From Candidatus Woesearchaeota archaeon (GTDB lineage Archaea > Nanobdellota > Nanobdellia > Pacearchaeales > GW2011-AR1): 52,696 bases of DNA. Of this stretch, positions 10,713 through 43,588 are shown one piece after another. The DNA lies in contig CAZRCO010000001.1 of the NCBI GenBank assembly GCA_964598635.1, forward strand, positions 1 to 52,696. The letters are read 5' to 3'. The position numbers and the translations under genes are program-made. The stretch's first letter is position 1. Each line of letters begins with the position of its first letter. The notes under the pieces were generated by a model. That model was not told the origin of the DNA. It saw only the letters and a program-made list of their open reading frames with translations, and made no database searches.

Positions 10713-13079
10713 ATGCTCCGTAAAAGACAAAGAAAATCACATGAACAAAAAATAGCTGAAGAATTCTTTCCTGTCGATAAAACAGATTTAAGATATTCCA
10801 TTGAAAAACCGTATAAAACCAAGGTTTCTCCACAACAGATTAATAAAAAACAAAGAAAATTCGGAAAAAAGAGAAGCAAAGAAAATATCTCAAAAAGGAC
10901 TCAAAGAAAAAAGGTAGAGTATAAATCAAAAAAAATTTCGTTAAAAAAAGGAGGATATGAGCTTATAATCACAGAGAAACCACAAGCTGCTTTGAAAATT
11001 GCCTCTGCTTTAGGAGAACCCTTAAAAAAGAACCCGAACCGAAATACAATACCTTATTATGAGCTTTCAAGGCAAGGAAAAAAAATAGTTGTGGCATGCA
11101 CTGTTGGGCATCTCTTTACATTAAATCAGAATTCTTCAGGTTCAGATATTCCTGTTTTTGATATTTCATGGGTTCCAAATTACTTAGTAAGAAAAAGGGA
11201 TTTTACAAAAAAATATCATGACACTTTACTGAAATTAGCAAAAAATGCAGGAAGCATAACAATTGCAACAGACTATGATGTTGAAGGAGAAGTTATAGGA
11301 TTAAATGCAACAAGATATATCTGCGGACAGGAAGACGCAAATAGAATGAAATTCTCCACACTTACAAAAAAAGAATTAGAAGAAGCATATAAAAATAAAT
11401 CCAAAACCTTAAACTGGGGGCAGGCAATTGCAGGAGAAACAAGGCATTATTTAGATTGGTTCTATGGTATAAATCTCTCCCGTGCATTGATGAATGCAAT
11501 AAAGTCCCTAGGAAAATTTAAAATAATGTCAATTGGAAGAGTGCAGGGACCAAGCCTGAACCTGATAGTTAAAAAAGAAGAAAAAATTCAGAACTTCAAA
11601 CCAAAAGCATATTGGCAGGTGTTCATAACCATAATAAATTCCCATAGATTAGAGTTAAAATATAACAAAGATATCTTTGATGAAAAAAAACTTGAGAAGT
11701 TTAAAGATCTTGTAGGAAAAACCGCAGAAGTAAGCACAAAAAAGACAGAACAAACTCTTTCTCCTCTTCCTCCGTTTAATTTAACTGCCCTGCAAATGGA
11801 ATCTTACAGAATATACGGAATAACTCCCGTAAGAACATTACAGATTGCTCAATCTCTTTATCTTTCCGGACATATTTCTTACCCAAGAACTTCCAGCCAG
11901 AAACTCCCTCCTTCAATTTCCTATAAAGAAATATTAACAAAACTTTCAAAACAATATGGGGTTGAAAGACTCATAAAAAGACAAAAGCCAGTGGAAGGTA
12001 AAAAAACTGATCCAGCCCATCCATCAATTTATCCAACAGGACAGAATCTAGATGGTATAAACAGTAAAAATAACGGGCTTTCTGTGGATGAACAAAAAAT
12101 ATATGATTTAATTGCTAAAAGATTCCTGGCATTATTCTGTGATGATGCAATAATTGACAACAAAAGAATTACCGCGAAAATTGATACTAATAAAAGGAAA
12201 GTTGATGGTCAAGGAAACCTTGGTGTCCTTACCTTTTTGGCAAAGGGTTCAATGATAAGGAAAAAATCATGGCTTGAATTCTATCCTTTAAAAACAAAAG
12301 AGCAAAATCTGCCTGACCTTGAAGGAGAGATGAAAATAATTAGTGTCAGAACCGAGGAAAAGGAAACTCAGCCACCAAAACGTTATACTCAAGCTTCAAT
12401 AATCTCAGAACTTGAAAAAAGAAATCTTGGAACAAAAGCGACAAGAGCTTCAATAATCCAGACTCTTTATGACAGGGGTTATATAAGAGAAAAAAGCATA
12501 CAAGCAACTTATTTAGGAATTTCCTTAATAAAGTCTCTGGAAAAGTATTCTCCTATAATAATTGATGAGAAATTAACAAGAAGCTTTGAAAAAGATATGG
12601 AAAATATTGAAAAAACCAGGAAGGATTTTGAAGAGAAGAAAAACAACGTCATTAAAAAAGCAAAAAAAACAATAACAGAAATTTCCCAGGATTTTAAAGA
12701 TAATGAAGAAGAAATCGGCAAAGAACTGGTAAAAGCAAATGAAAAAATCAGATTGCGGGAAAGAGAAGAAAACAAACTGAATATTTGTCCTGTCTGTAAA
12801 AAAGGAATTTTGACAATAATTTATTCTAAAAAAAATAAAAGGCAATTTGTTGCCTGTGACAAATACCCAGAATGTACTAATACTTACACTCTTCCTCCTA
12901 ATGGCTTAATAAAACCTTTAACGCCGAACAAGATCTGCGAAGAATGTGGTTTTCCATTACTAATGAGGATTTCAAAAGGAAAACGCCCATGGACTTTCTG
13001 CTTTAATCCTGAATGCCCGACAAACAAGGAAAGAATTGAGAAATATAAGAATAGGAAAGAGGAGAATAATAATTCTTAA
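10713..13079 (+). CDS. topA: Type IA DNA topoisomerase with polybasic N-terminal extension and C-terminal zinc ribbons
   Basis: TOPRIM motifs ELIITEKP and DYDVEGE, active-site SGHISYPRTSSQ, C-terminal CPVCKKG...CDKYPEC and CEECGF...CFNPEC. The track start at 10692 is a TTG. I prefer the ATG at 10713, which lies about 27 nt downstream of the TATA-like CCTATAAAAA (10681-10690). Confidence 0.9.
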   Translation: MLRKRQRKSHEQKIAEEFFPVDKTDLRYSIEKPYKTKVSPQQINKKQRKFGKKRSKENISKRTQRKKVEYKSKKISLKKGGYELIITEKPQAALKIASALGEPLKKNPNRNTIPYYELSRQGKKIVVACTVGHLFTLNQNSSGSDIPVFDISWVPNYLVRKRDFTKKYHDTLLKLAKNAGSITIATDYDVEGEVIGLNATRYICGQEDANRMKFSTLTKKELEEAYKNKSKTLNWGQAIAGETRHYLDWFYGINLSRALMNAIKSLGKFKIMSIGRVQGPSLNLIVKKEEKIQNFKPKAYWQVFITIINSHRLELKYNKDIFDEKKLEKFKDLVGKTAEVSTKKTEQTLSPLPPFNLTALQMESYRIYGITPVRTLQIAQSLYLSGHISYPRTSSQKLPPSISYKEILTKLSKQYGVERLIKRQKPVEGKKTDPAHPSIYPTGQNLDGINSKNNGLSVDEQKIYDLIAKRFLALFCDDAIIDNKRITAKIDTNKRKVDGQGNLGVLTFLAKGSMIRKKSWLEFYPLKTKEQNLPDLEGEMKIISVRTEEKETQPPKRYTQASIISELEKRNLGTKATRASIIQTLYDRGYIREKSIQATYLGISLIKSLEKYSPIIIDEKLTRSFEKDMENIEKTRKDFEEKKNNVIKKAKKTITEISQDFKDNEEEIGKELVKANEKIRLREREENKLNICPVCKKGILTIIYSKKNKRQFVACDKYPECTNTYTLPPNGLIKPLTPNKICEECGFPLLMRISKGKRPWTFCFNPECPTNKERIEKYKNRKEENNNS

Positions 13080-13273
13080 AAAGGAAGAAATGTATTATAA
13101 ATAATGGATAAGAATTATAATGGGGTTTCTTGGGAAGATGTTTACTCTAATGAAGAACTAAGAAAATCCACACAAATTGATGCCTATTTCTTCAGAGAAT
13201 GTGAAGTCAAATTAAGAAATGAGAAAAGAAAACAAGAAGCATTAGCAAGAAATTCTTTGGATAATTTAACTAC

Positions 13274-14488
13274 TTAAAACCATTCTGCTAATCTTCTTTG
13301 GGTATTAACCTGACTTAATATTTTGCTTCTGCTTAATATTTGTGCAGGATTGAAATTGTATTTTATTATGCCAACTTTTTTAGCACTTTCAATAAGTTCT
13401 TCTTTACTATTAAATTCTATTTTCCTGTTACTTAGGGCTTTTCTAACTGATTCGCGAACAACCCATACTCCCAAAGCAGCCCAATAACTTGGTGTTTCTA
13501 TTCTAATAGCTAAAACAGAACCTTGCCTTTTTACTTTATCAAGGTATTCCAAAATAGGAAGTCTTGAAGCATAATAACCCCCGCCTGTATTGGAAGCATA
13601 ACTTTTTCTCCCTTCAAAAGACTCAAAATCTGTCGCAGCCTTAATCTCCTGGCTTGGATTCCATGAGCTCCCTGGCAGATAAAGTTCAAAGAGTTCATAA
13701 CTCAATATTCCTGGAAAAAACAAAATAAGATAACAGTTTCCCATAAATTCCCCAAAAAAAAGCTCAAAATTTTCTATCTCCCTGTAACCTCTTATCTTTT
13801 TCAGCAAAAATTTTCCTATTGTATCATCTGTTGCAGTAATGCTCCACCTTGTAGGAACAAGCCTTTTATTTTTCTTCAGTCCAAGAACGCCAACACTTAA
13901 TATTTTGTTTAAAGTATATTCTCCAAAATTATTTTTATACAAATACTCAATTCCTTCAGAAGCCTTTATTTCATCATTAATAATCTTGTCAACTTTTCTA
14001 TCTATTTTTACATTTCCTGTTATTTTGGCTTTTTTTAAACTTCCCCTCATCCCCTGAGGAGTTACAATTCTGTCTTTTTTTCTTCCGACATTCAACCTGT
14101 TTTTCAGTTCAATTTCAACATCCACAGGCTTGGAAGCAACTGCAATTTCCTTGGCAATTTGTAAAAATTTTTGACTATTTTTACTTATTCTTACGTCCTG
14201 AACTTTTGACTGAAACCTTGAATTTAACAAACTATCTCTTAACTGAATAACATCAGTAATTTCAAAATTATTATCTGCCCAATATTTCTCATCATCATAA
14301 ATCCAGGCATCTTCATCTCTCTCCAAGGGGCTTAATATCCCAACATTTACTAAAGGATATCTAAGCTTACTGCCAACAAAAACACTTGGAGGAGAACTTG
14401 AGTCAAGTTTATTTATGTTTTTTAGTTCTCTAATTCTAAAATTAGCTTCAGCAAGTTTCTTAACAACTTCAAATCTAATATCATCCAT
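13274..14488 (-). CDS. nreA: Archaeal Nre-family DNA repair protein
   Basis: 404 aa. SPPSVFVGSKLRYPLVNVGILSP matches my memory of the Nre N-terminal signature. Recognised by recall only. Confidence 0.7.
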   Translation of the reverse strand: MDDIRFEVVKKLAEANFRIRELKNINKLDSSSPPSVFVGSKLRYPLVNVGILSPLERDEDAWIYDDEKYWADNNFEITDVIQLRDSLLNSRFQSKVQDVRISKNSQKFLQIAKEIAVASKPVDVEIELKNRLNVGRKKDRIVTPQGMRGSLKKAKITGNVKIDRKVDKIINDEIKASEGIEYLYKNNFGEYTLNKILSVGVLGLKKNKRLVPTRWSITATDDTIGKFLLKKIRGYREIENFELFFGEFMGNCYLILFFPGILSYELFELYLPGSSWNPSQEIKAATDFESFEGRKSYASNTGGGYYASRLPILEYLDKVKRQGSVLAIRIETPSYWAALGVWVVRESVRKALSNRKIEFNSKEELIESAKKVGIIKYNFNPAQILSRSKILSQVNTQRRLAEWF

Positions 14489-14530
14489 TTTAATCTTAAT
14501 AGTAGAAACTTCAAACTTTATATTTTTATA

Positions 14531-15196
14531 TCAAGTTAACTTTTTAAAAAACCCCTTTTCCCTTCTTACAAAAAAATCAAATTTGTTGTGTTTGTTATTC
14601 CTAACTAAGTTAAAATAAAGATTTCTCCATGCATGAAGAATACCAAAGTCATTAGAAGCCAATGCCGTGTCTCCTCTTTTTTGAGATAAAATCTTTCCTA
14701 AAATTAAAAAATTATAATCTGTATCACTTAATTCATATCCTTTTTGTAGCCTATCATATTCTTTTCTTTGGGTATTATATAATTCCAGCTCTTCTTCAGT
14801 TAATTTATCTAATCCAAGAATTCTACCTTGCCCTGAAAACATTTCAATCAGTCTCCTTATTTCTCTGCAACAATATCTTCTCTCTCTTAACAAATTTAAA
14901 ACTCCTTTATCTGAATGCGAGCCTCTTCTTCTAACAGCCTTCATATAAGGATAATGAGAAATTTCTGAATATTCATCACAAACTTCAGGAGTAATCCAAC
15001 ACGAATCTCCTCTCATAAGATGGTCCATCAATAAATTTCTAAAAAAATGTTCATCCTCTATCTTTTCTCTTTTTTCCTTACAAGTAAGAATGTCCTTATT
15101 GTATTTCATCCCATTTCCCATAACACAAGTATCTAATAAAAGAAAATCATATTCATTAGTCAGTTCTTCTAAAGTCCGTAAATTGTTCCAATTCAT
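14531..15196 (-). CDS. PIN-like nuclease-fold protein with Cys/His-rich insertion (hypothetical)
   Basis: FLLLDTCV (first acidic motif), ITPEVCDEY, LSDTDYNFLILG, and ALASNDFGI (C-terminal T/S-x-D motif). Confidence 0.4.
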   Translation of the reverse strand: MNWNNLRTLEELTNEYDFLLLDTCVMGNGMKYNKDILTCKEKREKIEDEHFFRNLLMDHLMRGDSCWITPEVCDEYSEISHYPYMKAVRRRGSHSDKGVLNLLRERRYCCREIRRLIEMFSGQGRILGLDKLTEEELELYNTQRKEYDRLQKGYELSDTDYNFLILGKILSQKRGDTALASNDFGILHAWRNLYFNLVRNNKHNKFDFFVRREKGFFKKLT

Positions 15197-15252: not shown

Positions 15253-15984
15253 TTATATCCATCCTTTTTTAAATACTCCTTTATTTTTTATCTCAAAAAA
15301 CATCTCTTTTTGGGGAAGACTTCGATGCTTTAATAAAATAGCTTTTTTCTTTCCCCTGTCGTTTCTTAATTCAATTATACATTTACTCCAATATTGAAAC
15401 AAATTTCCCCCAACAATATTAACTTTCCTTTCCTGACCTTTCTTTATTTCTTCTTCAGGTAAAAACTCTGTGTAAACCTGATTTGTGATAATAATCGGAA
15501 TTCTCTGACTTCTTGAAATTTCAGCCAAAATCCTCATCTGCTTTGCCACTTCCCTGTTAACTTCCCTGATTTTTTCATCATCCCTGGACTTAACCGCATC
15601 TCCGAACTCAAGTCTGTAAAGCATAGCCATCCCATCAACAATAATAAGGTTTATTTTTCCTTTTTTAACTTGGTTTAAAAGTTTTTCAAAAACCCCTTTT
15701 TGCTCATTGAAACTTACGGGAGAGAAAATTACAATATTTTTCAAAATTTCTTCGTAATTCTCCCCAACAATCTGCCTAATCCTTTCAATACTAAACCCCC
15801 CCTCTGTATCTATAAAAATTACTTTGTTACCTTTTCTTGCCTGACTGCATGCGACAAGGATTGTAAAATTTGTCTTCCCGCTTCCAGGGGGACCGGCAAT
15901 CATAGTTATAACATCGTTTTCATAACCCCCATAAAGCCATTTATTAAAATCATAACTTCCTGTTGAAATTTTGTTCTTACTCAT
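15253..15984 (-). CDS. radB: RadB recombinase paralog (RadA/RecA family)
   Basis: 243 aa. Walker A GPPGSGKT, Walker B LIIVDG, and no N-terminal HhH domain. Confidence 0.85.
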   Translation of the reverse strand: MSKNKISTGSYDFNKWLYGGYENDVITMIAGPPGSGKTNFTILVACSQARKGNKVIFIDTEGGFSIERIRQIVGENYEEILKNIVIFSPVSFNEQKGVFEKLLNQVKKGKINLIIVDGMAMLYRLEFGDAVKSRDDEKIREVNREVAKQMRILAEISRSQRIPIIITNQVYTEFLPEEEIKKGQERKVNIVGGNLFQYWSKCIIELRNDRGKKKAILLKHRSLPQKEMFFEIKNKGVFKKGWI

Positions 15985-29384: not shown

Positions 29385-29422
29385 GCACTAAAACTTATAA
29401 ATTTTAAAATCTTATTGAATTT

Positions 29423-30517
29423 ATGTATAAAAGAGGTATTTCTGGGATTGTAGTCGCTTTAATATTAATTTTGCTTTCATTGGTTGCTGCAGGAATTGTT
29501 TGGGCAGTTATCAAAAATATTCTTACAAAAGAAACAGAAGAGATTTCTTTAGGAAAATTCCTCATTGATTTGGAAATAGAAAAAGCGTATTTTGGGGGAA
29601 ATGGTATTATTGTAAATATCAAAAGAAATGTGGGGGGTGGGGACCTAACAGGAATAAATTTTATTGTATCAGATGGAGAAAATAGTAAGGTAATAAAAAG
29701 AAAAATAAATTTACAAGAATTAGGAAAAAGCAATTTTAACCTTTCTCAACAAGAATTTGAAGGATTGGGATTTATTAAAGAAGTTTCAATAGCCCCAATA
29801 GTCAAACTGGAATCTGGAAAAGAATCCGAGGGTAATATTGTAGACACCAAAGAAGTTTCTGCTAAAGAGTTCCTTGTAAGCCTTGGAGCAGTTTCTTGGT
29901 GGAGACTTAATGGTAATGCTAAAGATGAGATTGGAGGAAATAGTGGAACCTTGCAAGGAGGAGTTAATTGTGATATTCCAGGAAAATTTAGTAAAAGCTG
30001 TGAATTTTTTCAAGAGGATGAAGGTGGTAACTATAGGGAAGATTATATTGAACTTTCATCACCAATCCAGTATGATATTCCTTGGACAGTATGCTCCTGG
30101 GTTTATTTAAAACAAAATTTTCCAGATAGAGCACATGTATTTTTAGATGATAGTGATGGTGAAAGTGCTGATCTTTACTCCTTAAGATTTTCTATGCATA
30201 ATAATACGAAAGCAGGATTTACTGATTATCTTGTACAAGATTACTATCTTAATTATGAATTTCCTATAAAAGAATGGAAATTTGCTTGTTATATAGGAAA
30301 TCTAAGTGGTGTTTATCTCTATGTAGATGGGCAGTTTAAAGATAAAAACCCCGATATTATTAAACTTCCTGTTAAATATGTAGCTCACAGTCCTCTTCGT
30401 AGCAATGTTACATCGGGAACCCCTCATGGGACTATCGGTATAATAGATGAAATTATGATATTTGATAAAGACTTATCTTCAGAAAATGTGGAATCTTTAT
30501 ATAAATTAATGAACTAA
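29423..30517 (+). CDS. Type IV pilin-like surface protein, paralog A: class III signal peptide, stalk type 1, LamG/concanavalin-like head
   Basis: MYKRG|ISGIVVALILILLSLVAAGIVW resembles the archaeal prepilin/archaellin N-terminus KRG-IS-hydrophobic. Head motifs are typical of LamG: AVSWWRLNGNAKDEIGGNSGTLQGG...W..CSWVYL...IDEIMIFDKDLSSENVESLY. Confidence 0.7.
   Translation: MYKRGISGIVVALILILLSLVAAGIVWAVIKNILTKETEEISLGKFLIDLEIEKAYFGGNGIIVNIKRNVGGGDLTGINFIVSDGENSKVIKRKINLQELGKSNFNLSQQEFEGLGFIKEVSIAPIVKLESGKESEGNIVDTKEVSAKEFLVSLGAVSWWRLNGNAKDEIGGNSGTLQGGVNCDIPGKFSKSCEFFQEDEGGNYREDYIELSSPIQYDIPWTVCSWVYLKQNFPDRAHVFLDDSDGESADLYSLRFSMHNNTKAGFTDYLVQDYYLNYEFPIKEWKFACYIGNLSGVYLYVDGQFKDKNPDIIKLPVKYVAHSPLRSNVTSGTPHGTIGIIDEIMIFDKDLSSENVESLYKLMN
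29435..29550 (+). repeat. 116-nt segment identical to 34303..34418 (direct repeat; 5' ends of paralogs A and B)
   Basis: I aligned it by eye base by base: ggtatttctgggattgtagtcgc...acagaagagatttcttt in both copies. Confidence 0.85.
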
Positions 30518-33783: not shown

Positions 33784-34239
33784 TTATAAATCTTTTATCA
33801 TCCAAGTAGGCATACTAAGAACAGAGCCTAATGATTTTATATCATACCTGTCTCTCCAATTTTTCTTATCAACAGAAATAAATCTCATTTTTAATTTATT
33901 CTTTTTGCAAAGTTTAATGTTCTGCGCAACACGAGCCAGAATTTCGGATTTGTTTTTCTGACTTGAATTTATGATTTCATCCAAATTTATTCCGATAGTT
34001 ACATTATTTTTTTTAGCAATTTTTGCCATAACCTGATTAAACCCGGAATCTCTTTGTTTTAACCTGTCTTTTCTGCCTAATTGATTTAAGAGAAGAACAT
34101 CTATCTTTCCTTTTTCCAGAATTTTCCTGTTTAATTCATTATCACTGCTCAAAAAAATAATCTCTTTGCCCTGATTTTTCCTTATCTCACTTCTGGCTTT
34201 TTCAAAATTATTTGACCAGATTAAAAAAGAATCTTTCAT
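33784..34239 (-). CDS. rnp3: RNase P protein component 3 (Rpp30)-like, short form
   Basis: RDSGFNQVMAKIAKKNNVTIGINLDEII...ILARVAQNIKLCKKNKLKMRFIS...DIKSLGSVLSMP resembles the C-terminal two thirds of archaeal Rpp30 as I remember it. Only 151 aa. Confidence 0.5.
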   Translation of the reverse strand: MKDSFLIWSNNFEKARSEIRKNQGKEIIFLSSDNELNRKILEKGKIDVLLLNQLGRKDRLKQRDSGFNQVMAKIAKKNNVTIGINLDEIINSSQKNKSEILARVAQNIKLCKKNKLKMRFISVDKKNWRDRYDIKSLGSVLSMPTWMIKDL

Positions 34240-34290
34240 TTTATAATAAAAATAATAGATTTTTTAAACTTTTAAATCATTCTAAAAGGT

Positions 34291-34722
34291 ATGGATAAAA
34301 AGGGTATTTCTGGGATTGTAGTCGCTTTAATATTAATTTTGCTTTCATTGGTTGCTGCAGGAATTGTTTGGGCAGTTATCAAAAATATTCTTACAAAAGA
34401 AACAGAAGAGATTTCTTTCGGAAGTTTTTTTCTGGATTTGCAAATACAAAAAGTGAATGTAGAAAGGGATCAGATTAAAGTTACTGTAAAAAGGGGGGCG
34501 GGAGACGGAGAAACTGAGATAACTGGGATAGCTTTTATTATTTCTGATGGTGAAAAGAGCCAGACAATTAAAAAAGAAACAACATTAAAAGAGCTAGAAT
34601 ATGAAACTTTTACCATCTCTTCCTCTGAATTTGCAGATATCGCATTTGTTAAAGAAATTTTAATTGCTCCCGAAATCATTTCTGAAAGTGGAAAGGAAGA
34701 ATTTGGAAGAGAAGCGGATAAG
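34291..34722 (+). repeat. About 430-nt module (signal peptide plus stalk type 2), an inverted repeat of 42530..42964
   Basis: Most positions are identical by eye, including an 84-nt perfect run (34324..34407 versus 42848..42931). Similarity stops right after the GREADK codons. Confidence 0.8.
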
Positions 34723-35358
34723 ATTACTGATAAAGACTCAAAAGAACTCACATTAGAAAATCAATGGTGGACAAAAAATCCAGAAGAAATAAAAATCTTA
34801 ATTATCGAAAGAAGAAGTGAAACAGGTTGGACGGATGAGATAAATAACTTAGGATATAATATAGAAATAAAAGATTCAATAAATTCAAAAGAAGAACTGG
34901 AAAATTATCTGTCTACATTAGGGGAAAATGAAAAGCCAGATATAATTGCATGCATTGAAACTGCTTGGAGTTGTTCTAAATATAATCTGCTCAACTCCCT
35001 TTATGATTCTGGTTATTATATATTTACTGAAGGAAATGATAACACAGCATTAATTTACCCTATTTTAACTTCGGAATATACAACCTCTTCAGCAGGAAAG
35101 ATATTATCTACCAATGAAGGATGTGCTGAACCCCTAATTTATGGGTGGACAGAAACTTCAAATTCTGGAGGAGATTCTAGGAGGGGAACTTTAAGTGTTC
35201 ATCCTAAAGCCTGCTCAATTGCAAAAGATAACACTTTAAATTATATAGAAGCGATTTATCTGGAAGAATCTGGAAAAGGGAGATGGTATCATCATCAGCC
35301 AAACAGTATCGCCCCAGAAGAATTAATTAATAATTTTTTAAAGTATCTTTCTAGATAA
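34291..35358 (+). CDS. Type IV pilin-like surface protein, paralog B: class III signal peptide, stalk type 2, unassigned head domain
   Basis: MDKKG|ISGIVVALILILLSLVAAGIVW. The stalk is near-identical to paralog D. The head (from about residue 145) has alternating hydrophobic-strand and helix patterns (KILIIERRS..., DIIACIE..., YYIFTEGNDN). Confidence 0.7.
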   Translation: MDKKGISGIVVALILILLSLVAAGIVWAVIKNILTKETEEISFGSFFLDLQIQKVNVERDQIKVTVKRGAGDGETEITGIAFIISDGEKSQTIKKETTLKELEYETFTISSSEFADIAFVKEILIAPEIISESGKEEFGREADKITDKDSKELTLENQWWTKNPEEIKILIIERRSETGWTDEINNLGYNIEIKDSINSKEELENYLSTLGENEKPDIIACIETAWSCSKYNLLNSLYDSGYYIFTEGNDNTALIYPILTSEYTTSSAGKILSTNEGCAEPLIYGWTETSNSGGDSRRGTLSVHPKACSIAKDNTLNYIEAIYLEESGKGRWYHHQPNSIAPEELINNFLKYLSR

Positions 35359-35360
35359 TT

Positions 35361-36050
35361 TTATCCTGAAATAACAGTTCCTTTAAATTTCCTATTATTC
35401 AACAGATTGTCAAGCTGTTTTAAATCTTTTCCAAGTATATATGTTATAATTTCATTTTTTAATATAATAGCTGATGCTGTTTGATCTAATACGAAATGCT
35501 GTCCTGGTTTAAACTTTCCTCTATGTGTCATTTCAAAAAAATTTCTCCATGAAATTTTAGGTATAAATTTGGCATTTTTATACTTCAAAGGATTTCTATT
35601 ATACAATCCAGATACATTTGTCAAATTTATAAAATCTGTCTTGAAATGTTTTGCAAGTTCTGCAGATGTTGAGTCAGAAGTTTGCTTTGGTCTATACTCC
35701 AAGGCTCCGCAAAAAACAACATCCTGTTCTCTTATATCACTTTCAACTTTTTTGAGAGTATGAGGAATCCCTTGTTTTGGGTTTATTTTGAAAATATAAC
35801 TCATAAACCTAGCGTTCGTTCTTGTCGCACTAATGCCAGAAAAGCTCTGAAATTCCTCATTTAATCCTAATTTCCTTAATGCGTTAATATATTTTCGTGC
35901 AACACTTCCTCCACCGCAAACAATAATAAATTTGTGTTTTTTAGTATTTTTTAAAATAACTCTTTTAAATTCCTTAAGAAATTTCAAATCTATTTTTTCA
36001 GGAACAATCAAGCTTCCGCCCAAACTTAACACGATAAACCTCTTTTTCAT
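35361..36050 (-). CDS. pyrH: Amino-acid-kinase-fold enzyme, probably archaeal UMP kinase
   Basis: 229 aa. LSLGGSLIVP, IVCGGGSVARKYI and GISATRTNA. Confidence 0.55.
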   Translation of the reverse strand: MKKRFIVLSLGGSLIVPEKIDLKFLKEFKRVILKNTKKHKFIIVCGGGSVARKYINALRKLGLNEEFQSFSGISATRTNARFMSYIFKINPKQGIPHTLKKVESDIREQDVVFCGALEYRPKQTSDSTSAELAKHFKTDFINLTNVSGLYNRNPLKYKNAKFIPKISWRNFFEMTHRGKFKPGQHFVLDQTASAIILKNEIITYILGKDLKQLDNLLNNRKFKGTVISG

Positions 36051-36086
36051 AAAGAAAAAAGAACTTCCCGGTTTTTATATTTTCCT

Positions 36087-36368
36087 CTATTTAACTGTAA
36101 ATAACTTATTATTTCTCACGTCGAATACATCCAGCCTAACACCGGCATCCAACCATCCATGAGCATAATTCAAAGAAGCAAAGGAATTTACATAATCCCT
36201 GTCTTTCCGAAAATATTCTGCATCTGAGAGATAATTTGAAACCATATCAATTATTTCTTTAGCATATTTTTCCTTGCCTTTAATTACCTTTTTTTTAGCT
36301 TCCCTTAACGCAGCAAAAGTAATTTTAAAATACTTATTAAGTTTTTGTTTTGTTATCTTGTTTTCCAT
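36087..36368 (-). CDS. DUF357-like small helical protein
   Basis: YLSDAEYFRKDRDYVNSFASLNYAHGWLDAGVRL fits my memory of DUF357. Confidence 0.5.
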   Translation of the reverse strand: MENKITKQKLNKYFKITFAALREAKKKVIKGKEKYAKEIIDMVSNYLSDAEYFRKDRDYVNSFASLNYAHGWLDAGVRLDVFDVRNNKLFTVK

Positions 36369-36466
36369 TTTTATTTTACTATATAATTATAATTTTTAAC
36401 TTTATCTGTTAATTACTTGTCTGTATAACAAAAAAGCTTTTAAATTCTATTAAGTTTCAATATAAA

Positions 36467-36748
36467 ATGAAAAAAGAGTTTGGGCTGGGGCAAAATAAAA
36501 GGATTATTTGGATATTAATATCTGTTATAATAGCTCTCTCTTTATTATTAATTTATTTGCTTGCTATAAGACCTGCAATAAGTGGTTATATAATTAATGC
36601 ACAAAATCAAGGATATGCTGCTGCAGTAATTTCAATTATGCAACAAGCTGTAACTTGCCAGACAGTTCCATTAACTTTTGGAAATCAAACTATCAATTTA
36701 ATTGCTATTGAATGCCTCCAACAACCACAAGTTAATCTTCAAGGATAA
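36467..36748 (+). CDS. Small membrane-anchored protein
   Basis: 93 aa, one TM segment (IIWILISVIIALSLLLIYLLAI). Ends 35 nt upstream of paralog C. Confidence 0.4.
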   Translation: MKKEFGLGQNKRIIWILISVIIALSLLLIYLLAIRPAISGYIINAQNQGYAAAVISIMQQAVTCQTVPLTFGNQTINLIAIECLQQPQVNLQG

Positions 36749-36753
36749 AATAA

Positions 36754-36767
36754 TTTATAAATATAAA
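36754..36767 (+). promoter_or_regulatory. TATA-like box for paralog C (short or absent leader)
   Basis: TTTATAAATATAAA is centred about 24 nt upstream of the ATG at 36784. Similar TTTATAAA-type boxes sit 20-35 nt upstream of the ATGs of paralogs A, B and D. Confidence 0.35.
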
Positions 36768-36783
36768 ATTCTATCATAGATTA

Positions 36784-37917
36784 ATGAGTAAAAGAGGTAT
36801 TTCTGGAATTGTAGTTGCTTTGATACTGATTCTTTTGGCATTAGTTGCAGCAGGAATTATTTGGGTTGTTATAAGAAGTACTGTCTCTGAAGGAGTAGAA
36901 GAAGTTTCTTTGGGAAAATTCCTGATTGATTTAAACATAGAAAGGGCTTATATTGAAGGTAATAATCTCGTTGTAAATGTAAAGAGAAATCCAGGAGCAG
37001 GAGATTTAATTGCAATAAATTTTGTTGTCTCTGATGATTCAGAAACTGAAGTAGTCAGGCAGGATACAGACCTGAATGAATATGAAGGAAGAGAATTTAA
37101 TTTTACTTTACAAAATATAAATCTCAGTTCTATAAAAGAAATTTCTGTTGTCCCTGTTTATGTTTCCGGGGGTAAAGAAACTTTGGGAAGTATAACTGAT
37201 ACTTATAATGTAGGAGAAGAATCTCTTGAAGAAATTGAAGGAGATGGTATTGGTGAGACAGGAGGAACATGCACTGATGAAGAAACACAATCCTGTCCTT
37301 TCCAAAACGGAGTTTGTTCTGGTTCTTTACAAACATGTACTGGGGGAAGCTGGCCAGGATGTGATTATACTCCAATATCTGAATATGAATTGACAGAAAT
37401 AACTTGTAATGATGGTTTAGATAATGACTGTGATGGAAATACAGATACTGCAGACTCAAACTGCCAAATATCGGGATGTACCCCTGCTCCAGACCCAACA
37501 CTTCCCGGAATCTGTGGAGCAAGAGAATGTGGAAATGCTGAAAATGGAACTTGTGGAACAGTTAGTTGTGGGGATTGTCAACAATTATACGGTTCAGTAT
37601 ATATCTGCGATACAGACACAGGACAATGTGTTGTAGAAACTTCAGTTAATTCTGGAATCATTTATTCAGTTTGGCCTTCTGATGCTCCGAAATATCTTGA
37701 AAGTGAGAACTTGCCAAAATCCTCTGAAGGATACAATTATATTGGGTATTTTGTTAAATTCCCCGGCTCTGCTGAAACAGGTTGTATAATGATAACTTAT
37801 TTTGATTATCTGGCACAAAATGATAGAAGTTACATCAGGCTGGACAGAGTTGCTACAATAGCTTCCCCAGATAACTATGAAATATGGGCAACACAACAGG
37901 GATGCGAGGGAGTATAA
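36784..37917 (+). CDS. Type IV pilin-like surface protein, paralog C: class III signal peptide, stalk type 1, Cys-rich head
   Basis: MSKRG|ISGIVVALILILLALVAAGIIW. The stalk is similar to A (SLGKFLIDLNIERAY...). The head has about 18 Cys by my count and includes CNDGLDNDCDGNTDTADSNC. Confidence 0.7.
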   Translation: MSKRGISGIVVALILILLALVAAGIIWVVIRSTVSEGVEEVSLGKFLIDLNIERAYIEGNNLVVNVKRNPGAGDLIAINFVVSDDSETEVVRQDTDLNEYEGREFNFTLQNINLSSIKEISVVPVYVSGGKETLGSITDTYNVGEESLEEIEGDGIGETGGTCTDEETQSCPFQNGVCSGSLQTCTGGSWPGCDYTPISEYELTEITCNDGLDNDCDGNTDTADSNCQISGCTPAPDPTLPGICGARECGNAENGTCGTVSCGDCQQLYGSVYICDTDTGQCVVETSVNSGIIYSVWPSDAPKYLESENLPKSSEGYNYIGYFVKFPGSAETGCIMITYFDYLAQNDRSYIRLDRVATIASPDNYEIWATQQGCEGV

Positions 37918-37952
37918 CTAGTGCAAATTCTGATAAATTCTTAACAGAACTC

Positions 37953-38669
37953 TTAATAAATTCTTGTTTGAGGGAGAGGCATCATTTTCTTAATCACAAA
38001 CTTTGTCCCGATTACATCTGAAATTATTGCTGATAAAATTAATTTTCCAATTACTACTTTATAAATCCCAAAATCTATAGGGATTTTAGATACTTCAGAA
38101 AATTTATCTATTATTTCATCAATTTCTTCTCTATTAAGTATTATATTTGTAGGCTTAACCCCCATTGAGCCTATAACAACAATTCTTTTTTCAGGACCAT
38201 TGCACTCTATGGTTTTCACCGCAGGGTCTTTTATTAAAGGGTTCAATTTACCTAAATCTACTTGTCTCTCACCAGGAACTGGTCTAAGATACTGAAATTC
38301 AGGAGGAAGTTTTGGTTCTGGTATTCTTAAAACATAATCTGGTCTTATTTTTAATGGTGGTCTTGGAATTACTTTTGGGGTAATTTCTCGTCTCAGGGGC
38401 TTTGAAATAAGTGATGTTGTGGGTATCGTAGGCATTGAGATAAGGGGCTTTGATATGGGCATTGATGGTGTTGAAGGAAGTAATTTTGAGATTGGTGGTT
38501 TTCCGATTTCCCCTTCTTTCCTAATACCTTCTCTAACCTCTCTTTCTAAAGTTTTTTTTAATTCCAGAATTCTCCCTTCTCCTGAATTTTTGATTAATTC
38601 TTTTGTAAACGTTATTAGAAAAAAGGCTCTTTTTTCTTGGGATTCCAAATCCAAAGATTGTTTTGCCAT
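37953..38669 (-). CDS. Proline-rich protein ending in a FlaI/PilB/VirB11-type secretion-ATPase N-terminal domain, with no ATPase domain
   Basis: The C-terminal 90 or so aa, DPAVKTIECNGPEKRIVVIGSMGVKPTNIILNREEIDEIIDKFSEVSKIPIDFGIYKVVIGKLILSAIISDVIGTKFVIKKM, align by eye with the conserved D-P-x-[VL]-x-D-I-x-x-N-G...T-N...E-E...F-x-I-R-K block that precedes the Walker A domain in this ATPase family. The ORF stops 11 aa later. Confidence 0.45.
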   Translation of the reverse strand: MAKQSLDLESQEKRAFFLITFTKELIKNSGEGRILELKKTLEREVREGIRKEGEIGKPPISKLLPSTPSMPISKPLISMPTIPTTSLISKPLRREITPKVIPRPPLKIRPDYVLRIPEPKLPPEFQYLRPVPGERQVDLGKLNPLIKDPAVKTIECNGPEKRIVVIGSMGVKPTNIILNREEIDEIIDKFSEVSKIPIDFGIYKVVIGKLILSAIISDVIGTKFVIKKMMPLPQTRIY

Positions 38670-38671
38670 TT

Positions 38672-39193
38672 TTAATAAACTCTTTCTTGTTCGAATTCTT
38701 CTGGAGAAGAAATAGACTTTTGATATTCTTCTGAACTAACTTCTTTACCCTGACTTTGAGGAATTCTTTGTTTTGATTGAACTGTGGTTGGTATCCCCCT
38801 CATTTCTGTTCCTGTTCTGGTCTCCGCCCCTGTAACTGTTCTTTGATTCGTCTCATGCAACAATGTCAGACCTCTCGAAATAATTTTATTTTGTTCCAGA
38901 AGATTATCCAGTTTTTTCTCAATCTCTTTACTTCCCATTCCTGACTTTTCTGAAAAATCTTTTTTCATAATTGTTTTGGCAGAAAATTCAAATAATTCAA
39001 GCAACTTGGATATTTGCTTGCTAAGTTCTTCAAACTTTAAGGACAAATTTGTCATTACTTTCTGCATAGAAACAAAATTTTCGATGAGGATTCTTTCGGT
39101 GTTTCTATTCTTTTTTGAAAGTGAAGATTTACTTGCACTTCGCCCGGTTTTTGAGCCCTTTTTTGAACTTTTTTTTGAACCCCTTTTCACCAT
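38672..39193 (-). CDS. Hypothetical coiled-coil protein with basic N-terminus
   Basis: 173 aa, MVKRGSKKSSKKGSKTGRSASK..., then heptad-like segments. Ends 2 nt before the next ORF. Confidence 0.45.
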   Translation of the reverse strand: MVKRGSKKSSKKGSKTGRSASKSSLSKKNRNTERILIENFVSMQKVMTNLSLKFEELSKQISKLLELFEFSAKTIMKKDFSEKSGMGSKEIEKKLDNLLEQNKIISRGLTLLHETNQRTVTGAETRTGTEMRGIPTTVQSKQRIPQSQGKEVSSEEYQKSISSPEEFEQERVY

Positions 39194-39250
39194 ATTTTAA
39201 ATAAAGCATAGTTATTTATAAATTTTTAGAATTGCTTAAAAAAGAATTGT

Positions 39251-41758
39251 TTAGAAAATGTCTAAAACTTTTTCATCATTACCTGCTTCTGAATATGCAT
39301 ATTTGTTTTCTTCAGATTCTGTTTCTTCACTTTCCTGGAAATTTTCAAGAGGAAGAGACTCTGTTACAATCTTTTCTTCTTTATTTCCCTCAGGAGTTAA
39401 ATTCTCGGTTTTTGTAGATTCTGAAGGCAAAGACTTTAATGGACCTTTATCATTTCCTCCCTCCAAATTTTTCTCCAAATCTCTGGTGTAATTAGCTATA
39501 TCTGCTGCCATATCTGCATTAACACTTATGCTATCAATTCCTCTTTCAACTAAAAATTTAACCATATCTTTTCTACTTCCTGCCTGTCCGCAGATACTTG
39601 TCTCAACATTATATCTCTTACATATTCTTATTACGTATTCCAATTGATATAAAATTGCGGGATTCATTTCGTCATATAAACTCTGCACTTCCTCATTCCC
39701 CCTATCAACAGCCAGAGTATATTGAGTTAGATCATTAGTTCCAAAAGATACAAAATCTATTCCTTCATCACACAAATCTTTTATTAATTGAACAGATGCC
39801 GGAGTCTCTATCATCACTCCCACTTTTGCTCTTGGAAAATCTATTTTTTTCAAAAATTCTTTTACTTTTTTAACTTCATCAACAGCAATAATCTGCGGCA
39901 ACAATAAACCAATTTCCTTGTTCTGTTTTGAGATTCTTTTTAATGCCTTAAGCTCTGCACTTAATATTTCTGGTTTTTTTATGCCTGCTCTAATACCATG
40001 CATTCCTAACATTGGATTTATTTCAACTTTTTTCGGAGCTCCTTCCAAATTCTTAAATTCATCACTTCTAATATCTGAAGTTCTAACCCACAAACTGTCA
40101 AAAAATTTAGAAATTTCACTTACTCCTTTGTAAATTATTTCTTCATAGTCTCCAATTTTATTTTTTGCCAGAAAATAATTTGGATGCTTTCCTGATTCAG
40201 CAATAATTCCCTCAATTCTTAATAATCCAACTTCTTTTATATCTGATTTAGCAGCTCTTTTTGCAAAACTTGGTAAGTCAATTATAACTTTTATTTTGGT
40301 TTTTGTTTTCACGTTTACCGGCAAAACTTCTTTTTTCTCTGATTCTGCAATTTTTCCTTTGTATACTTTTCCTGTATATCCATCCACAGTTATTACTTCT
40401 CCCTCTTTTAATTTCATTGTAGCTTCTTTGGTTCCGACAATAGCAGGAATTCCCATCTCCCTGGAAACAATCGCAGCATGTGCTGTAAGCCCCCCTTCAT
40501 CTGTTACAATAGCAACAGACTTTTGCATTGTAACAACCATGTCTGGATTTGTCATCTTAGTTACCAATACATCCCCCTCACCAACTTTCCCCAAATCTCC
40601 TAAATCCAAAACAATTTTTACTTTCCCAGAACCAATTCCGGGAGAAGCACCAAGTCCCTTTAATATAATCTCTCCTTTAATTTCTCCTATAGACTCTTTC
40701 TCAACTCTTTTTTCAAGAGTTGTTATTGCCCTGGTTTGGACAATATAAATCCCTTCGCCTTCAATTGCAAATTCTATATCCTGGGGTTTTTTGTAGTGTT
40801 CTTCTAATTTCAGTGCAAACTCAGCAAGCTTATTTATCTCAAATTCCTTTAATACCTGTAAATGAGACTTTTCCTCAGGCAGTTTTATCTCAATTTTTTT
40901 TCCTCCAGGGTCTTTTGTTATAGCAATTTTTTTGTCTGCGATTTCTTTTTCAAGTATTTCAAAATCTTTTGACACTATATATCTATCAGGACTGATTCTG
41001 CCAGAAACAATACCCTCTCCCAAACCAAAAACAGCTTCAATTATTATATTATCATTTTTAAAAGACGGATCTTTTGAAAAAATAACCCCTGACTTATCCG
41101 AATCAACCATTTTTTGAACTACAACTGCAAGCCCTGCATCATGCTTAAATCCTTTCTTCTGTCTGTAATATGTCGCACGGGCAGTGAATAAAGATGCAAA
41201 ACATTCTTTTATTTTCAATAGTAGCTCTTCATTACCATGCACATTTAGAAAAGTTTCCTGCTGTCCTGCAAAACTTGCATCTTCTAAATCTTCTGTTGTT
41301 GCACTGCTCCTAACAGCAACAAAATTATATTCTGACTTTTTTTCAATGATATCCAAAGCTGTCCTTTCTTTTTCCTCTCCGCCAGAATCTTCAATATCCA
41401 GATTTTCGTAAGATTCAATAATCTCCTCTTCCAAATCTTTAGGCAGTTTTGAATTTACTATCAGTTGTCTAATTTGTTTTGTAGTATTTTCCAACTTTTT
41501 GGTATTTTCATAATTTATTTTTTCAAGAAGTTCCTTAATTTTTCCCTGTACACCGGATTTTTCTATAAAATAATTATATGCCTGAACTGTAACAACAAAA
41601 CCAGGGGGGACAGGAATTTTTAGATTATAAATCTCCCCTAAATTAGCTCCTTTTCCTCCAACAATGTTACCAGAATTCCTGTTCAGTTCAGAAAACCACT
41701 TAATAAAATCTTTCCTTTCACTTCCCCCTTTTTCACCAGCCTCTTTTTTCTCTGGCAT
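39251..41758 (-). CDS. ppsA: Phosphoenolpyruvate synthase (pyruvate, water dikinase) with acidic C-terminal tail
   Basis: GGKGANLGE (ATP-grasp N-domain), phospho-His domain GGLTAHAAIVSREMGIPAIVGT, and PEP-utilising TIM barrel FVSFGTNDLTQYTLAVDR. Confidence 0.9.
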   Translation of the reverse strand: MPEKKEAGEKGGSERKDFIKWFSELNRNSGNIVGGKGANLGEIYNLKIPVPPGFVVTVQAYNYFIEKSGVQGKIKELLEKINYENTKKLENTTKQIRQLIVNSKLPKDLEEEIIESYENLDIEDSGGEEKERTALDIIEKKSEYNFVAVRSSATTEDLEDASFAGQQETFLNVHGNEELLLKIKECFASLFTARATYYRQKKGFKHDAGLAVVVQKMVDSDKSGVIFSKDPSFKNDNIIIEAVFGLGEGIVSGRISPDRYIVSKDFEILEKEIADKKIAITKDPGGKKIEIKLPEEKSHLQVLKEFEINKLAEFALKLEEHYKKPQDIEFAIEGEGIYIVQTRAITTLEKRVEKESIGEIKGEIILKGLGASPGIGSGKVKIVLDLGDLGKVGEGDVLVTKMTNPDMVVTMQKSVAIVTDEGGLTAHAAIVSREMGIPAIVGTKEATMKLKEGEVITVDGYTGKVYKGKIAESEKKEVLPVNVKTKTKIKVIIDLPSFAKRAAKSDIKEVGLLRIEGIIAESGKHPNYFLAKNKIGDYEEIIYKGVSEISKFFDSLWVRTSDIRSDEFKNLEGAPKKVEINPMLGMHGIRAGIKKPEILSAELKALKRISKQNKEIGLLLPQIIAVDEVKKVKEFLKKIDFPRAKVGVMIETPASVQLIKDLCDEGIDFVSFGTNDLTQYTLAVDRGNEEVQSLYDEMNPAILYQLEYVIRICKRYNVETSICGQAGSRKDMVKFLVERGIDSISVNADMAADIANYTRDLEKNLEGGNDKGPLKSLPSESTKTENLTPEGNKEEKIVTESLPLENFQESEETESEENKYAYSEAGNDEKVLDIF

Positions 41759-41842
41759 GTTAAAAAAGAAATTATAAAAGTTAATAAAGGTTTTTGTTAA
41801 CTTTTTTGTTAATTCAAAAGAACGATTATTTTCTGGATAAAA

Positions 41843-42964
41843 TTAACTTAAATCTAAATTATAGAGTCCTTTAACTTGTTGTTCCATGAGGGCTTTATTA
41901 AAAATCATTACTTCATCTATCTGGCCTTTAAAATAACCTTTTCCTGTAGGGCAACCGCTGTTAACTCCTCCCCCAATCTTTACATTTTCACTATTTGTAA
42001 TAACTAAGTTTCCACTAGTAATATCCTGCGAATCAAGTTCCCCATCAATATATGTTTTTTGTTCAGATGTATTAATATCATAACTAAAGGCTAAATGTTT
42101 CCATTCATCAGCAGAAGCTGGTGAATCAGTCCATAATCTATATGTGTCATCTTCTAATTTTAGAGTAAAACCAACTTTCCCTTGGGGACTCCAATCAGCT
42201 TCCCAGATTAAATGATATACTCCCCAATCTCCTTTGTTTAATAAATATCTCCAATTATTATTGTCATTACAATCCATTCCAGAACTTGGCTTTATCCACA
42301 TAACAAGAGTAATCCCTTCTCTAATGTCCAAACTTTGGTCATTTCCTACATCTACATAATCATCATTCCCGTCAAAATTTGCAGCTTGACCAAAATTACT
42401 ATCAATAAAACCTATACCCCCTTGCGTTGTCCCATGATTTCCTCCAATTTCATCGCTTGAATCTCCGTCAAACTTCCACCAAGAGACAGCTCCTAAATTC
42501 TCTAAAATTTGCTTGGTTGAAAACTCTTCTTTATCTGCTTCTCTTCCAAATTCTTCCTTTCCACTTTCAGAAGTGACTCCAGGAGCAATTAAAATTTCTT
42601 TAACAAATGCTATATCCCCAAGTTCAGAATAAGAAATAGTAAAAGTTTCATATTCAAGCTCTTTTAATGTTGTTTCTTTTTTGATTGTCTTGCTCTTTTC
42701 ACCATCAGAAATAATAAAAGCTATTGAAGTCATCTCGGTATCTTCACTTCCTGACCCTCTTTTTACTGTAACCTTCACATCACCATTATCTTCGGTTTTA
42801 ACTTTTTGTATTTGCAAATCCAGAAAAAAACTCCCTAAAGAAACCTTTTCTGTTTCTTTTGTAAGAATATTTTTGATAACTGCCCAAACAATTCCTGCAG
42901 CAACCAATGAAAGCAAAATTAATATTAAAGCTACTATAATTCCAGAAATACCTCTTTTATACAT
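41843..42964 (-). CDS. Type IV pilin-like surface protein, paralog D: class III signal peptide, stalk type 2, LamG/concanavalin-like head
   Basis: MYKRG|ISGIIVALILILLSLVAAGIVW. The stalk IAFIISDGEKSKTIKKETTLKELEYETFTIS...SESGKEEFGREADK is almost the same as B. The head reads AVSWWKFDGDSSDEIGGNHGTTQGG...FDGNDDYV...WKHLAFSYD...IDEVMIFNKAL (LamG pattern). Confidence 0.7.
   Translation of the reverse strand: MYKRGISGIIVALILILLSLVAAGIVWAVIKNILTKETEKVSLGSFFLDLQIQKVKTEDNGDVKVTVKRGSGSEDTEMTSIAFIISDGEKSKTIKKETTLKELEYETFTISYSELGDIAFVKEILIAPGVTSESGKEEFGREADKEEFSTKQILENLGAVSWWKFDGDSSDEIGGNHGTTQGGIGFIDSNFGQAANFDGNDDYVDVGNDQSLDIREGITLVMWIKPSSGMDCNDNNNWRYLLNKGDWGVYHLIWEADWSPQGKVGFTLKLEDDTYRLWTDSPASADEWKHLAFSYDINTSEQKTYIDGELDSQDITSGNLVITNSENVKIGGGVNSGCPTGKGYFKGQIDEVMIFNKALMEQQVKGLYNLDLS
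42530..42964 (-). repeat. Inverted copy of the signal-peptide plus stalk type 2 module (partner 34291..34722)
   Basis: See the partner feature. It also shares an 84-nt perfect run with paralog A (29456..29539). Confidence 0.8.
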
Positions 42965-43036
42965 ACCTTTTTATAAGAGATTAAAGTTTATAAAATTATT
43001 AGTTAGTTTTATAAATTCATTTTTATTTTATTTATC

Positions 43037-43588
43037 ATGGCATTATTATGGGTATTAATTTTGGTTGCTGCATTAATAGTCCTAATATTTTTTATTTATT
43101 TCAACAGGTTTGCTATCCTAGGAAATAGGATTGATAACTCATTAAGCCAGATTAATGTGCAGTTAAAAAGAAGGGCAGATTTGATTCCTAATTTAATTGA
43201 GACTGTGAAAGGCTTTGCAAAACATGAAAAAGCTGCAATAAAAGAAGTTACAGATGCAAGAAAAGCTCTTGTTTCTGCCACAGGAATTGAAAAGAAAGTT
43301 AAAGCTGATGAAAGGCTTGAATCTGCATTAAAAACAATTTTTGCAATTGCAGAAAACTATCCTGATTTGAAAGCAAATCAGAATTTCCTCGAATTACAGC
43401 GGGAATTATCAGCAACAGAAGATAAAATTGCATATGCAAGGCAATATTATAATGACAGTATTTTAACTTATAATAATTTATGCAAAACATACCCCGGAGC
43501 ATTTTTTGCAAAGTTATATGGCAAAAAACCAAAAGAATATTTACAAATAGCAGAATCTGAAAAAAAACCGGTAAAGGTTAAATTTTAA
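43037..43588 (+). CDS. lemA: LemA family protein
   Basis: N-terminal TM segment, QLKRRADLIPNLIETVKGFAKHEK, and YYNDSILTYNN. Confidence 0.85.
   Translation: MALLWVLILVAALIVLIFFIYFNRFAILGNRIDNSLSQINVQLKRRADLIPNLIETVKGFAKHEKAAIKEVTDARKALVSATGIEKKVKADERLESALKTIFAIAENYPDLKANQNFLELQRELSATEDKIAYARQYYNDSILTYNNLCKTYPGAFFAKLYGKKPKEYLQIAESEKKPVKVKF

Follow-up and report, generated by a model that had tools for sequence, protein, structure and literature searches.

The 52.7-kb stretch of DNA analyzed here (the window) is a piece of chromosome with 31.8% G+C that is rich in housekeeping genes. Its source is a DPANN archaeon of the Pacearchaeota/Woesearchaeota type, and its nearest relatives are metagenome-assembled genomes labeled Pacearchaeota, Woesearchaeota or Nanoarchaeota. 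Dispersed among the housekeeping genes lie four paralogs, here designated A to D, with A, D and C on the forward strand and B on the reverse strand (Table 1). They have in common a pilin-like N-terminal module (N-module) and differ in the C-terminal domain, or head, attached to it; the 5′ ends of B and D additionally form a long inverted repeat around a block of conserved genes. We address the homology of these genes, their domain identities, the pattern of their divergence, their synteny and an alternative combination of their modules found in a relative.

Domain architecture of the four paralogs

The N-termini of A, B, C and D all follow the pattern M-x-K-[KR]-G↓I-S-G-I-[IV]-V-A-L-I-L-I-L-L, which is that of archaeal class III signal peptides, and each of the 25 family members inspected has this motif. 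The TIGR02537 model (archaellin/type IV pilin N-terminus) matches 13 of 22 N-modules of the family (best E-value 2.4e-7) and the UpsA pilin model matches eight of the 22; Pfam searches with isolated N-modules returned sub-threshold matches only (e.g. Arch_flagellin, E 0.039). When compared with PDB, a profile of the N-module retrieved archaeal pilin-like and flagellin-like filament subunits as its best, if weak, matches (8fk7, E 0.003; 8fjs; 3j1r). A single-sequence AlphaFold model of D, of low whole-model confidence, places a helix at residues 3–35 followed by seven strands at 42–129, these elements having a predicted local distance difference test (pLDDT) score of about 60–88. All four genes carry a TATA-like box of the form TTWTAAAYWT at positions −29 to −20, a putative promoter element.

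Three unrelated kinds of head are joined to this one homologous N-module. The Laminin_G_3 domain (PF13385) is detected above its gathering score in both A (E 7.6e-9, 36.3 bits) and B (E 5e-24, 85.6 bits), and the two heads align with each other in a head-only blastp comparison (32% identity, E 1e-22). The head of C is Cys-rich, with a match to the NCBIfam model acid_disulf_rpt that falls under the cut-off. For D, the initial annotation had proposed a LamG head homologous to that of A, but D yields no Pfam match, Laminin_G_3 included, and its head alone, compared by blastp with A, B and C, showed no significant similarity to any of them. As the single-sequence model of full-length D is too poor for the head, an alignment-based AlphaFold model of the head was used (pLDDT 91; predicted template modeling score, pTM, 0.88). 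Its best Foldseek match is GMP synthase subunit A (2a9v, E 1e-6, TM-score about 0.6), and it also resembles IFT52-N and ThuA-like proteins. As modeled, the D head is a class I glutamine amidotransferase (GATase1)-like alpha/beta fold and not a beta-sandwich, and a LamG identity for residues 146–355 was ruled out. The particular mosaic suggested for D, the stalk of B with a LamG head, is therefore wrong; it is B itself that pairs the type 2 stalk with LamG. Stalk type 2 hence carries two heads, LamG in B and GATase1-like in D, and LamG heads stand on two stalks, those of A and B.

The D head belongs to a family of domains of about 190 aa, with 40 representative homologues and no Pfam model, that also occurs in unrelated architectures and attains a confident fold on its own, as befits an autonomous domain. 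Its profile gave only marginal response-regulator matches against PDB sequences, and it was the fold search that identified the GATase1-like fold. Class I glutamine amidotransferases have a Cys-His-Glu catalytic triad with a nucleophile-elbow cysteine. Across 21 homologues, no cysteine is found among the invariant or near-invariant columns, and the conserved residues include G103, N104, D105, W187, H189 and Q191; conserved motifs of the head (34726–35355) are KILVIE, PDI[VI]AC, F[TS]EGND, GW and GKGRW.H.QP. Members of this family (proteins P0031–P0069) are attached to archaeal pilin-like N-termini and to bacterial N-methyl (‘FTLIELL’) pilins (P0042, P0044, P0055), and they are also embedded in giant LamG-rich proteins of 3000–5000 aa. 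The domain appears to be a surface-protein module common to different domains of life.

Module combinations and gene slots in relatives

The housekeeping genes around the paralogs form a backbone with the order g684-g299-htpX-lemA / ppsA-g173-g238-(C slot)-pyrH-rpp30-pheS-pheT-o162, into which the pilin-like genes are set at particular slots. In a relative whose pheS is 76% identical to that of the window at the amino acid level (loci L091/L092), the slot of D, after rpp30, is occupied by a gene for a protein (P0006) with a type 2 stalk (68% aa identity to B, 66% to D) and a LamG core of the A type (72% aa identity to the A head, 36% to the B head). The linker and C-terminal tail of P0006 resemble those of B, and another pilin-like gene follows it. 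Alternative stalk/head combinations in relatives had been put forward as a check on the initial proposal that N-modules and heads assort independently through recombination. The combination seen in P0006, together with the three kinds of head on one N-module, bears that proposal out. The mosaic that had been named for D thus occurs in another genome.

The architecture of D is conserved in its orthologues at 80–81% identity, yet its parts rank these orthologues in reverse order: the stalk is closer to that of L001 (87%, vs 80% for L094) and the head to that of L094 (88%, vs 82.5% for L001). In L094, the 3′ end of a gene with an A-type head directly precedes the D orthologue. C is a conserved occupant of the slot between g238 and pyrH in many species, with orthologues of its head there in at least 11 loci, and pilin-like genes are found in variable slots in L016, L021, L028, L032 and L046. 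The best full-length homologue of B found beyond the window reaches just 48% identity. The closest lemA relatives have no gene in the B slot, and in the L001 species, the best-sampled relative, which has neither B nor the inverted repeat, g299 lies directly upstream of ppsA; B is thus a lineage-specific insertion. A metagenome scan with lemA found no B-slot gene in the informative loci L095, L096, L098 and L101, the remainder being mostly distant LemA-HtpX pairs. As far as sampled, the inverted repeat is unique to the lineage of the window.

Under the mechanism that we propose, recombination close to the conserved ‘...SGKE.G..D’ stretch that ends the stalk would, in the course of evolution, have exchanged heads or moved them to other places. 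Whole genes, B among them, would have entered variable slots between the genes of a housekeeping backbone that is fixed in other respects.

Two other slot occupants were observed. The C slot of the L001 species (L001–L010, locus ~11875–14631) holds a 918-aa protein with DUF2341 and LamG domains. In L176 (7732–9906) and L177 (364–1119), a cyclodipeptide synthase gene (PF16715), adjoined in L176 by a radical-SAM gene, occupies the position immediately upstream of ppsA, which in the window is taken by B and lemA.

Inverted repeat and divergence of the 5′ ends

The inverted repeat reported in the initial annotation is present where it was placed, and it consists of the shared putative promoter and pilin module of D and B on opposite strands, about 480 nt in length. 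B and D align by blastn at 86.0% identity over 486 nt (E 1e-163), the repeat search returns two inverted matches, I1 and I2 (87% and 85%), and the codon alignment of the two genes gives 87.3% nucleotide and 82.6% amino acid identity over 144 codons. Both arms begin about 50 nt upstream of the ATG, thus including the TATA-like box, and end at the codons for GREADK. Similarity is lost abruptly, as described initially: right after these codons, identity in 30-nt windows goes from 0.97 via 0.53 to at most 0.33, with a faint remnant (‘LEN..WW’) in the linker beyond. Within the arms identity is patchy: exact runs of 84 (D 34324–34407 = B 42931–42848), 36, 33 and 32 nt are accompanied by a divergent patch at D 34455–34527. 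As also noted initially, B and D are convergent; between them lie pyrH, C, the two conserved genes g238 and g173, and ppsA.

Divergence was quantified by the Nei–Gojobori (NG86) method per codon zone on the codon alignment, complemented by sliding-window identity and counts of informative sites. In codons 1–55, A, B and D are 90–93% identical in nucleotides, with a synonymous divergence (dS) of 0.10–0.19, vs 72–76% nucleotide identity, dS 0.78–0.89 and 64–69% amino acid identity between D and its orthologues in L094 and L001 (11/165 differences between paralogs vs 46/165 between orthologues; Fisher p 4e-7). The inclusion of A, whose first ~165 nt match B and D to this degree, had been overlooked. 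As longest common substrings, the exact runs measure 116 nt between A and D, and 84 nt both between A and B and between B and D. C stands outside the homogenized set (A–C dS 0.78 in codons 1–55). Since the orthologous proteins are only 64–69% identical over the same codons, protein constraint alone cannot explain the nucleotide identity of the paralogs. Relatives repeat the pattern with their own genes: promoter and 5′ end are 98.5% identical over 134 nt between the tandem genes of L094 and 89% over 238 nt between genes of L092, but these regions are only 72–76% identical across genomes. This distribution of identity points to within-genome gene conversion as the process homogenizing the 5′ ends of A, B and D.

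The pattern is different in the stalk zone. In codons 56–145, B and D are 83.5% identical in nucleotides with dS 0.43, and D is 80–87% identical to its orthologues (dS 0.46–0.59). A is equidistant there from B, C and D (43–44% aa). The earlier statement that A and C share a first stalk type holds locally, best at nt 120–250 (63–80%), but not across codons 56–145, over which A is no closer to C.

We suggest that promoter and pilin module are kept alike by non-reciprocal homologous recombination among paralogs of the same genome. Homogenization of A, B and D in the signal-peptide zone would be very recent, and the stalk zone of B and D would be about as old as the split from the sister species. 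Selection for a common N-terminal helix that fits one processing and assembly machinery probably favors the fixation of conversion tracts.

The 116-nt exact match between A and D is a direct repeat that flanks pheT-pheS-rpp30. Since a crossover between the two would remove essential genes, it must be non-crossover conversion that maintains their identity. In L092 (3224–3311) and L091 (5152–5239), the promoter copy of the second tandem pilin gene carries an antisense remnant of the rpp30 5′ end, a footprint of a duplication unit that took in the start of the neighboring gene.

Interpretation and alternative explanations

Taken together, the locus is best described as a set of DPANN modular pilin-like adhesin candidates. 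We regard it as probable that the four paralogs are surface proteins of a modular, type IV pilin-like kind, each composed of a class III signal peptide with a hydrophobic helix, a beta-sandwich stalk of about 90 aa, a short linker and an exchangeable head, and that they evolve through conversion of the constant 5′ unit along with occasional exchange or relocation of heads. Proteins of this kind would be processed as prepilins and displayed on a pilus or on the cell surface, with the heads serving in adhesion to hosts or substrates.

Several points weigh against this description. A, B and D score under the curated cut-offs of the pilin hidden Markov models (HMMs), and among the copies of the window only C matches TIGR02537, likewise under the cut-off (E 0.011). 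Membership in the pilin class, argued from the motif, the family-level HMM matches and a predicted fold of moderate confidence, is for that reason well supported but not formal. Neither a prepilin peptidase (PibD/FlaK/EppA) nor pilus ATPase or platform genes were found in the 52.7-kb window, and every function that we propose for A–D is read from sequence. The stalk-zone dS between B and D equals orthologue divergence; recent conversion is demonstrated for the first ~165 nt only, and the likeness of the stalks could stem from a single old duplication or fusion.

Extended to the whole repeat, that last point becomes the alternative that survives best, although we judge it unlikely: one inverted duplication or fusion, in which a copy of the D promoter and N-module was joined once to a LamG head, with no conversion since. 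The age of the stalk zone fits such an event, as do the empty B slot in relatives and the lack of a close B orthologue elsewhere. A single event does not account for the two tiers of divergence within the repeat, with 11/165 differences in the first zone vs 44/267 in the second (p 0.003), nor for the first ~165 nt being common also to A, whose stalk differs, nor for the independent 5′ homogenization in relatives.

The initial annotation saw in the repeat a possible invertible segment, with the 8 kb from pyrH to ppsA flipping to swap promoter and N-module between heads in the manner of a shufflon or of phase variation. Some features would suit such a device: the arms stand in inverted orientation, and their length of about 480 nt, their identity of 86% and their exact run of 84 nt suffice for occasional homologous recombination; the heads of B and D lie inside the segment and both promoters outside; and a RadA/RadB-like recombinase paralog is encoded at 15253–15984. 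The data speak against it nonetheless. The orientation of ppsA-g173-g238-pyrH relative to lemA/htpX and to rpp30/pheST is the same in every informative locus, in more than 25 species, and L096 keeps that orientation with no pilin-like gene in any slot, so that the arrangement of the window is, as judged from synteny, the conserved ancestral one. Contig L179, from another sample and 99.83% identical, spans htpX-lemA-B-ppsA and joins lemA, B and ppsA as in the window, with six single nucleotide polymorphisms, none of them in B. An exact-sequence look-up of D found no other contig on record; the look-ups of A and B gave L178 and L179, respectively, the former a contig from another sample that is 100% identical and spans o162-A-pheT. 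Contigs with 99.8–100% identity to parts of the window are present in the JGI samples 3300031257 and 3300031551. No tyrosine or serine recombinase, integrase, invertase, resolvase or transposase domain was found by Pfam in the 41 predicted proteins of the 52.7 kb, and the segment itself holds conserved housekeeping genes. Moreover, B and D are both full-length open reading frames (ORFs) with their own start codons, near-identical TATA boxes and N-modules, and a flip would thus only exchange two 83%-identical N-modules, producing neither an on/off nor a specificity switch. An invertible switch is therefore not supported and we deem it very improbable; rare homologous inversion across the 84-nt run may occur. 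The inverted repeat seems to be a side effect of the way the adhesin family evolves, not a DNA-inversion switch. A diversity-generating retroelement, a transposon and an integron were also considered and rejected, no reverse transcriptase, transposase or integrase being found in the window.

Somewhat less probable still is that purifying selection alone, acting on an N-terminal helix that must fit one peptidase and assembly machinery, produced the likeness without recombination. The hydrophobic domain of the Haloferax volcanii pilins PilA1–6 is almost fully conserved and is needed for pilus assembly (PMC4371748), and by analogy selection on a common helix may contribute here. The likeness of A, B and D extends, however, to synonymous sites, to exact runs of 84–116 nt and to the non-coding promoter, and orthologous proteins differ by 31–36% in the same residues; selection may fix conversion tracts, but it cannot generate the observed pattern. 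The least credible alternative is an assembly artefact in which short reads of paralogs were collapsed or mis-joined at the 84–116-nt core to give false mosaics or a false orientation, for even though such exact repeats exceed the k-mers of many assemblers and the contigs of relatives (L091, L092, L094) often end at pilin-like genes, L178 and L179 reproduce the o162-A-pheT and lemA-B-ppsA joins from two other samples, the arms differ at 14% of positions and are thus distinct loci, the orientation agrees with conserved synteny, and only a 36-nt exact run precedes the stalk/head junction.

Other features of the window

The coordinates of the features discussed are compiled in Table 1. Pfam identifies, among the genes of the window, aminoacyl-tRNA synthetases of the Phe, Val/Ile-type, Met, Trp/Tyr-type and Thr kinds, a topoisomerase, Cdc48, eRF1, the RNase P subunit and ppsA. 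The genes g238 and g173 (37953–39193) have no significant Pfam match, with one weak match under its cut-off, and in Pacearchaeota/Woesearchaeota relatives they invariably come after ppsA in the same orientation, as a conserved trio ppsA-g173-g238. On the reverse strand (1–1620), an ORF of at least 540 aa runs off the start of the window and encodes a predicted secreted protein with an N-terminal hydrophobic segment; its tandem repeats of ~41–46 aa (‘Y.GA.D..IYQLNASN’) correspond to the DNA repeat families D2–D4 at 443–1382. A loose DNA-repair group at 7603–10197, 13274–14488 and 15253–15984 comprises an Lhr-type helicase, an archaeal Nre and the short RadA/RadB-like paralog.

Table 1. Features of the pilin-like paralogs and their surroundings in the window
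Feature	Position	Strand	Remarks
Paralog A (364 aa)	29423..30517	+	first ~165 nt homogenized with B and D; different stalk; LamG head
Paralog D (355 aa)	34291..35358	+	class III signal peptide; type 2 beta-sandwich stalk; ~190-aa head modeled as GATase1-like
Paralog C (377 aa)	36784..37917	+	pilin-like N-module; Cys-rich head
Paralog B (373 aa)	41843..42964	-	N-module as in D; LamG (Laminin_G_3) head; between ppsA and lemA
Left repeat arm	34241..34722	+	putative promoter of D and codons 1–144
Right repeat arm	42530..43014	-	putative promoter of B and codons 1–145
Signal peptide/transmembrane helix core of D	34303..34418	+	116-nt exact match to A 29435-29550
TATA-like box of A	29395-29404	+	pattern search and upstream alignment
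TATA-like box TTTTAAACTT of D	34262..34271	+	-29..-20; pattern search and upstream alignment
TATA-like box of C	36755-36764	+	pattern search and upstream alignment
TATA-like box of B	42993-42984	-	pattern search and upstream alignment
rpp30 (RNase P p30 subunit)	33784..34239	-	Pfam PF01876; outer left flank, divergent from D
lemA	43037..43588	+	Pfam PF04011, E 5e-55; outer right flank, divergent from B, 72-nt spacer
Housekeeping block between repeat arms	35361..41758	-	Pfam; C inside the block on + strand
pyrH-like kinase	35361-36050	-	housekeeping block
g238	37953-38669	-	housekeeping block
g173	38672-39193	-	housekeeping block
ppsA	39251-41758	-	housekeeping block

Significance and comparison with known systems

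A life attached to hosts is assumed for DPANN archaea, and the locus provides candidate attachment proteins with LamG heads, a widespread uncharacterized GATase1-like head and a Cys-rich head. One genome holds several pilin-like proteins with a common, homogenized N-module and different putative binding heads, other combinations occur at the same site in relatives, and conversion together with head exchange constitutes a simple evolutionary mechanism for changing attachment proteins. It is conceivable, though we offer it as speculation, that the locus reflects a recombination-based system of adhesin diversification in DPANN archaea, in which promoter and pilin unit are kept uniform by conversion, heads are traded between loci and between lineages, thereby altering the specificity for host or substrate, and the B/D pair could occasionally invert the segment between them. 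If so, the uniform unit would let any attached head be processed and displayed, and the swapped heads would include the GATase1-like domain shared with bacterial N-methyl pilins, presumably of bacteria of the candidate phyla radiation, and with giant surface proteins.

Modular pilins and gene conversion among paralogs are both already known, and a programmed inversion switch is not supported at this locus. Shufflons and invertible switches (R64 Rci/sfx, Hin/Gin/Cin) use a site-specific recombinase acting on short, specific crossover sites. B and D resemble them in that inverted repeats lie inside the reading frames of known or candidate pilus adhesins and enclose the variable C-terminal parts, but differ in that no site-specific recombinase was found in the window, no short crossover sites are present, the interval is 8 kb of conserved housekeeping genes and a single orientation is seen among relatives and contigs. 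In the pilE/pilS system of Neisseria, non-reciprocal recombination between pilin paralogs of the same genome likewise shapes a surface filament protein. At the present locus, by contrast, it is the constant N-terminal part on which conversion acts, making it uniform, and the exposed part is not diversified by it. Silent cassettes that lack a promoter are absent, for each copy comes with a putative promoter and a start codon of its own.

Among archaeal systems, the PilA1–6 proteins of H. volcanii are paralogous pilins that serve in adhesion and whose hydrophobic domain is conserved almost completely (PMC4371748). A–D are similar in being scattered paralogs of one archaeal genome with a near-identical N-terminal hydrophobic segment and an otherwise different sequence, but PilA1–6 are small major pilins without grafted heads, and the work on them did not report concerted evolution at the nucleotide level or promoter sharing (PMC4371748). 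The putative tip adhesins with DUF2341 and LamG domains that are associated with archaeal type IV pili are large proteins encoded in type IV pilus gene neighborhoods (PMC4858521). A and B are, like them, LamG-type adhesin candidates, and it is a protein of this composition that occupies the C slot of L001; A–D, however, are small and scattered among housekeeping genes instead of lying beside the pilus machinery.

The closest parallel in architecture is found in the bacterial modular type IV pilins PilB, with a vWA module, and PilC, with a concanavalin A-like lectin module, of Streptococcus sanguinis, for which a position at the pilus tip and a role in adhesion are predicted (PMC8179133, PMC9934059). 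A–D are unlike these in being archaeal, with an N-terminus of the type ‘KRG↓I/LS’ instead of the bacterial N-methyl ‘G↓FTLIE’, in combining several heads with one N-module per genome and in having that N-module homogenized by conversion. They share with them the succession of a class III signal peptide and small pilin module, a short linker and a grafted head, and the head of S. sanguinis PilC falls into the concanavalin A-like/LamG superfamily, as do those of A and B.

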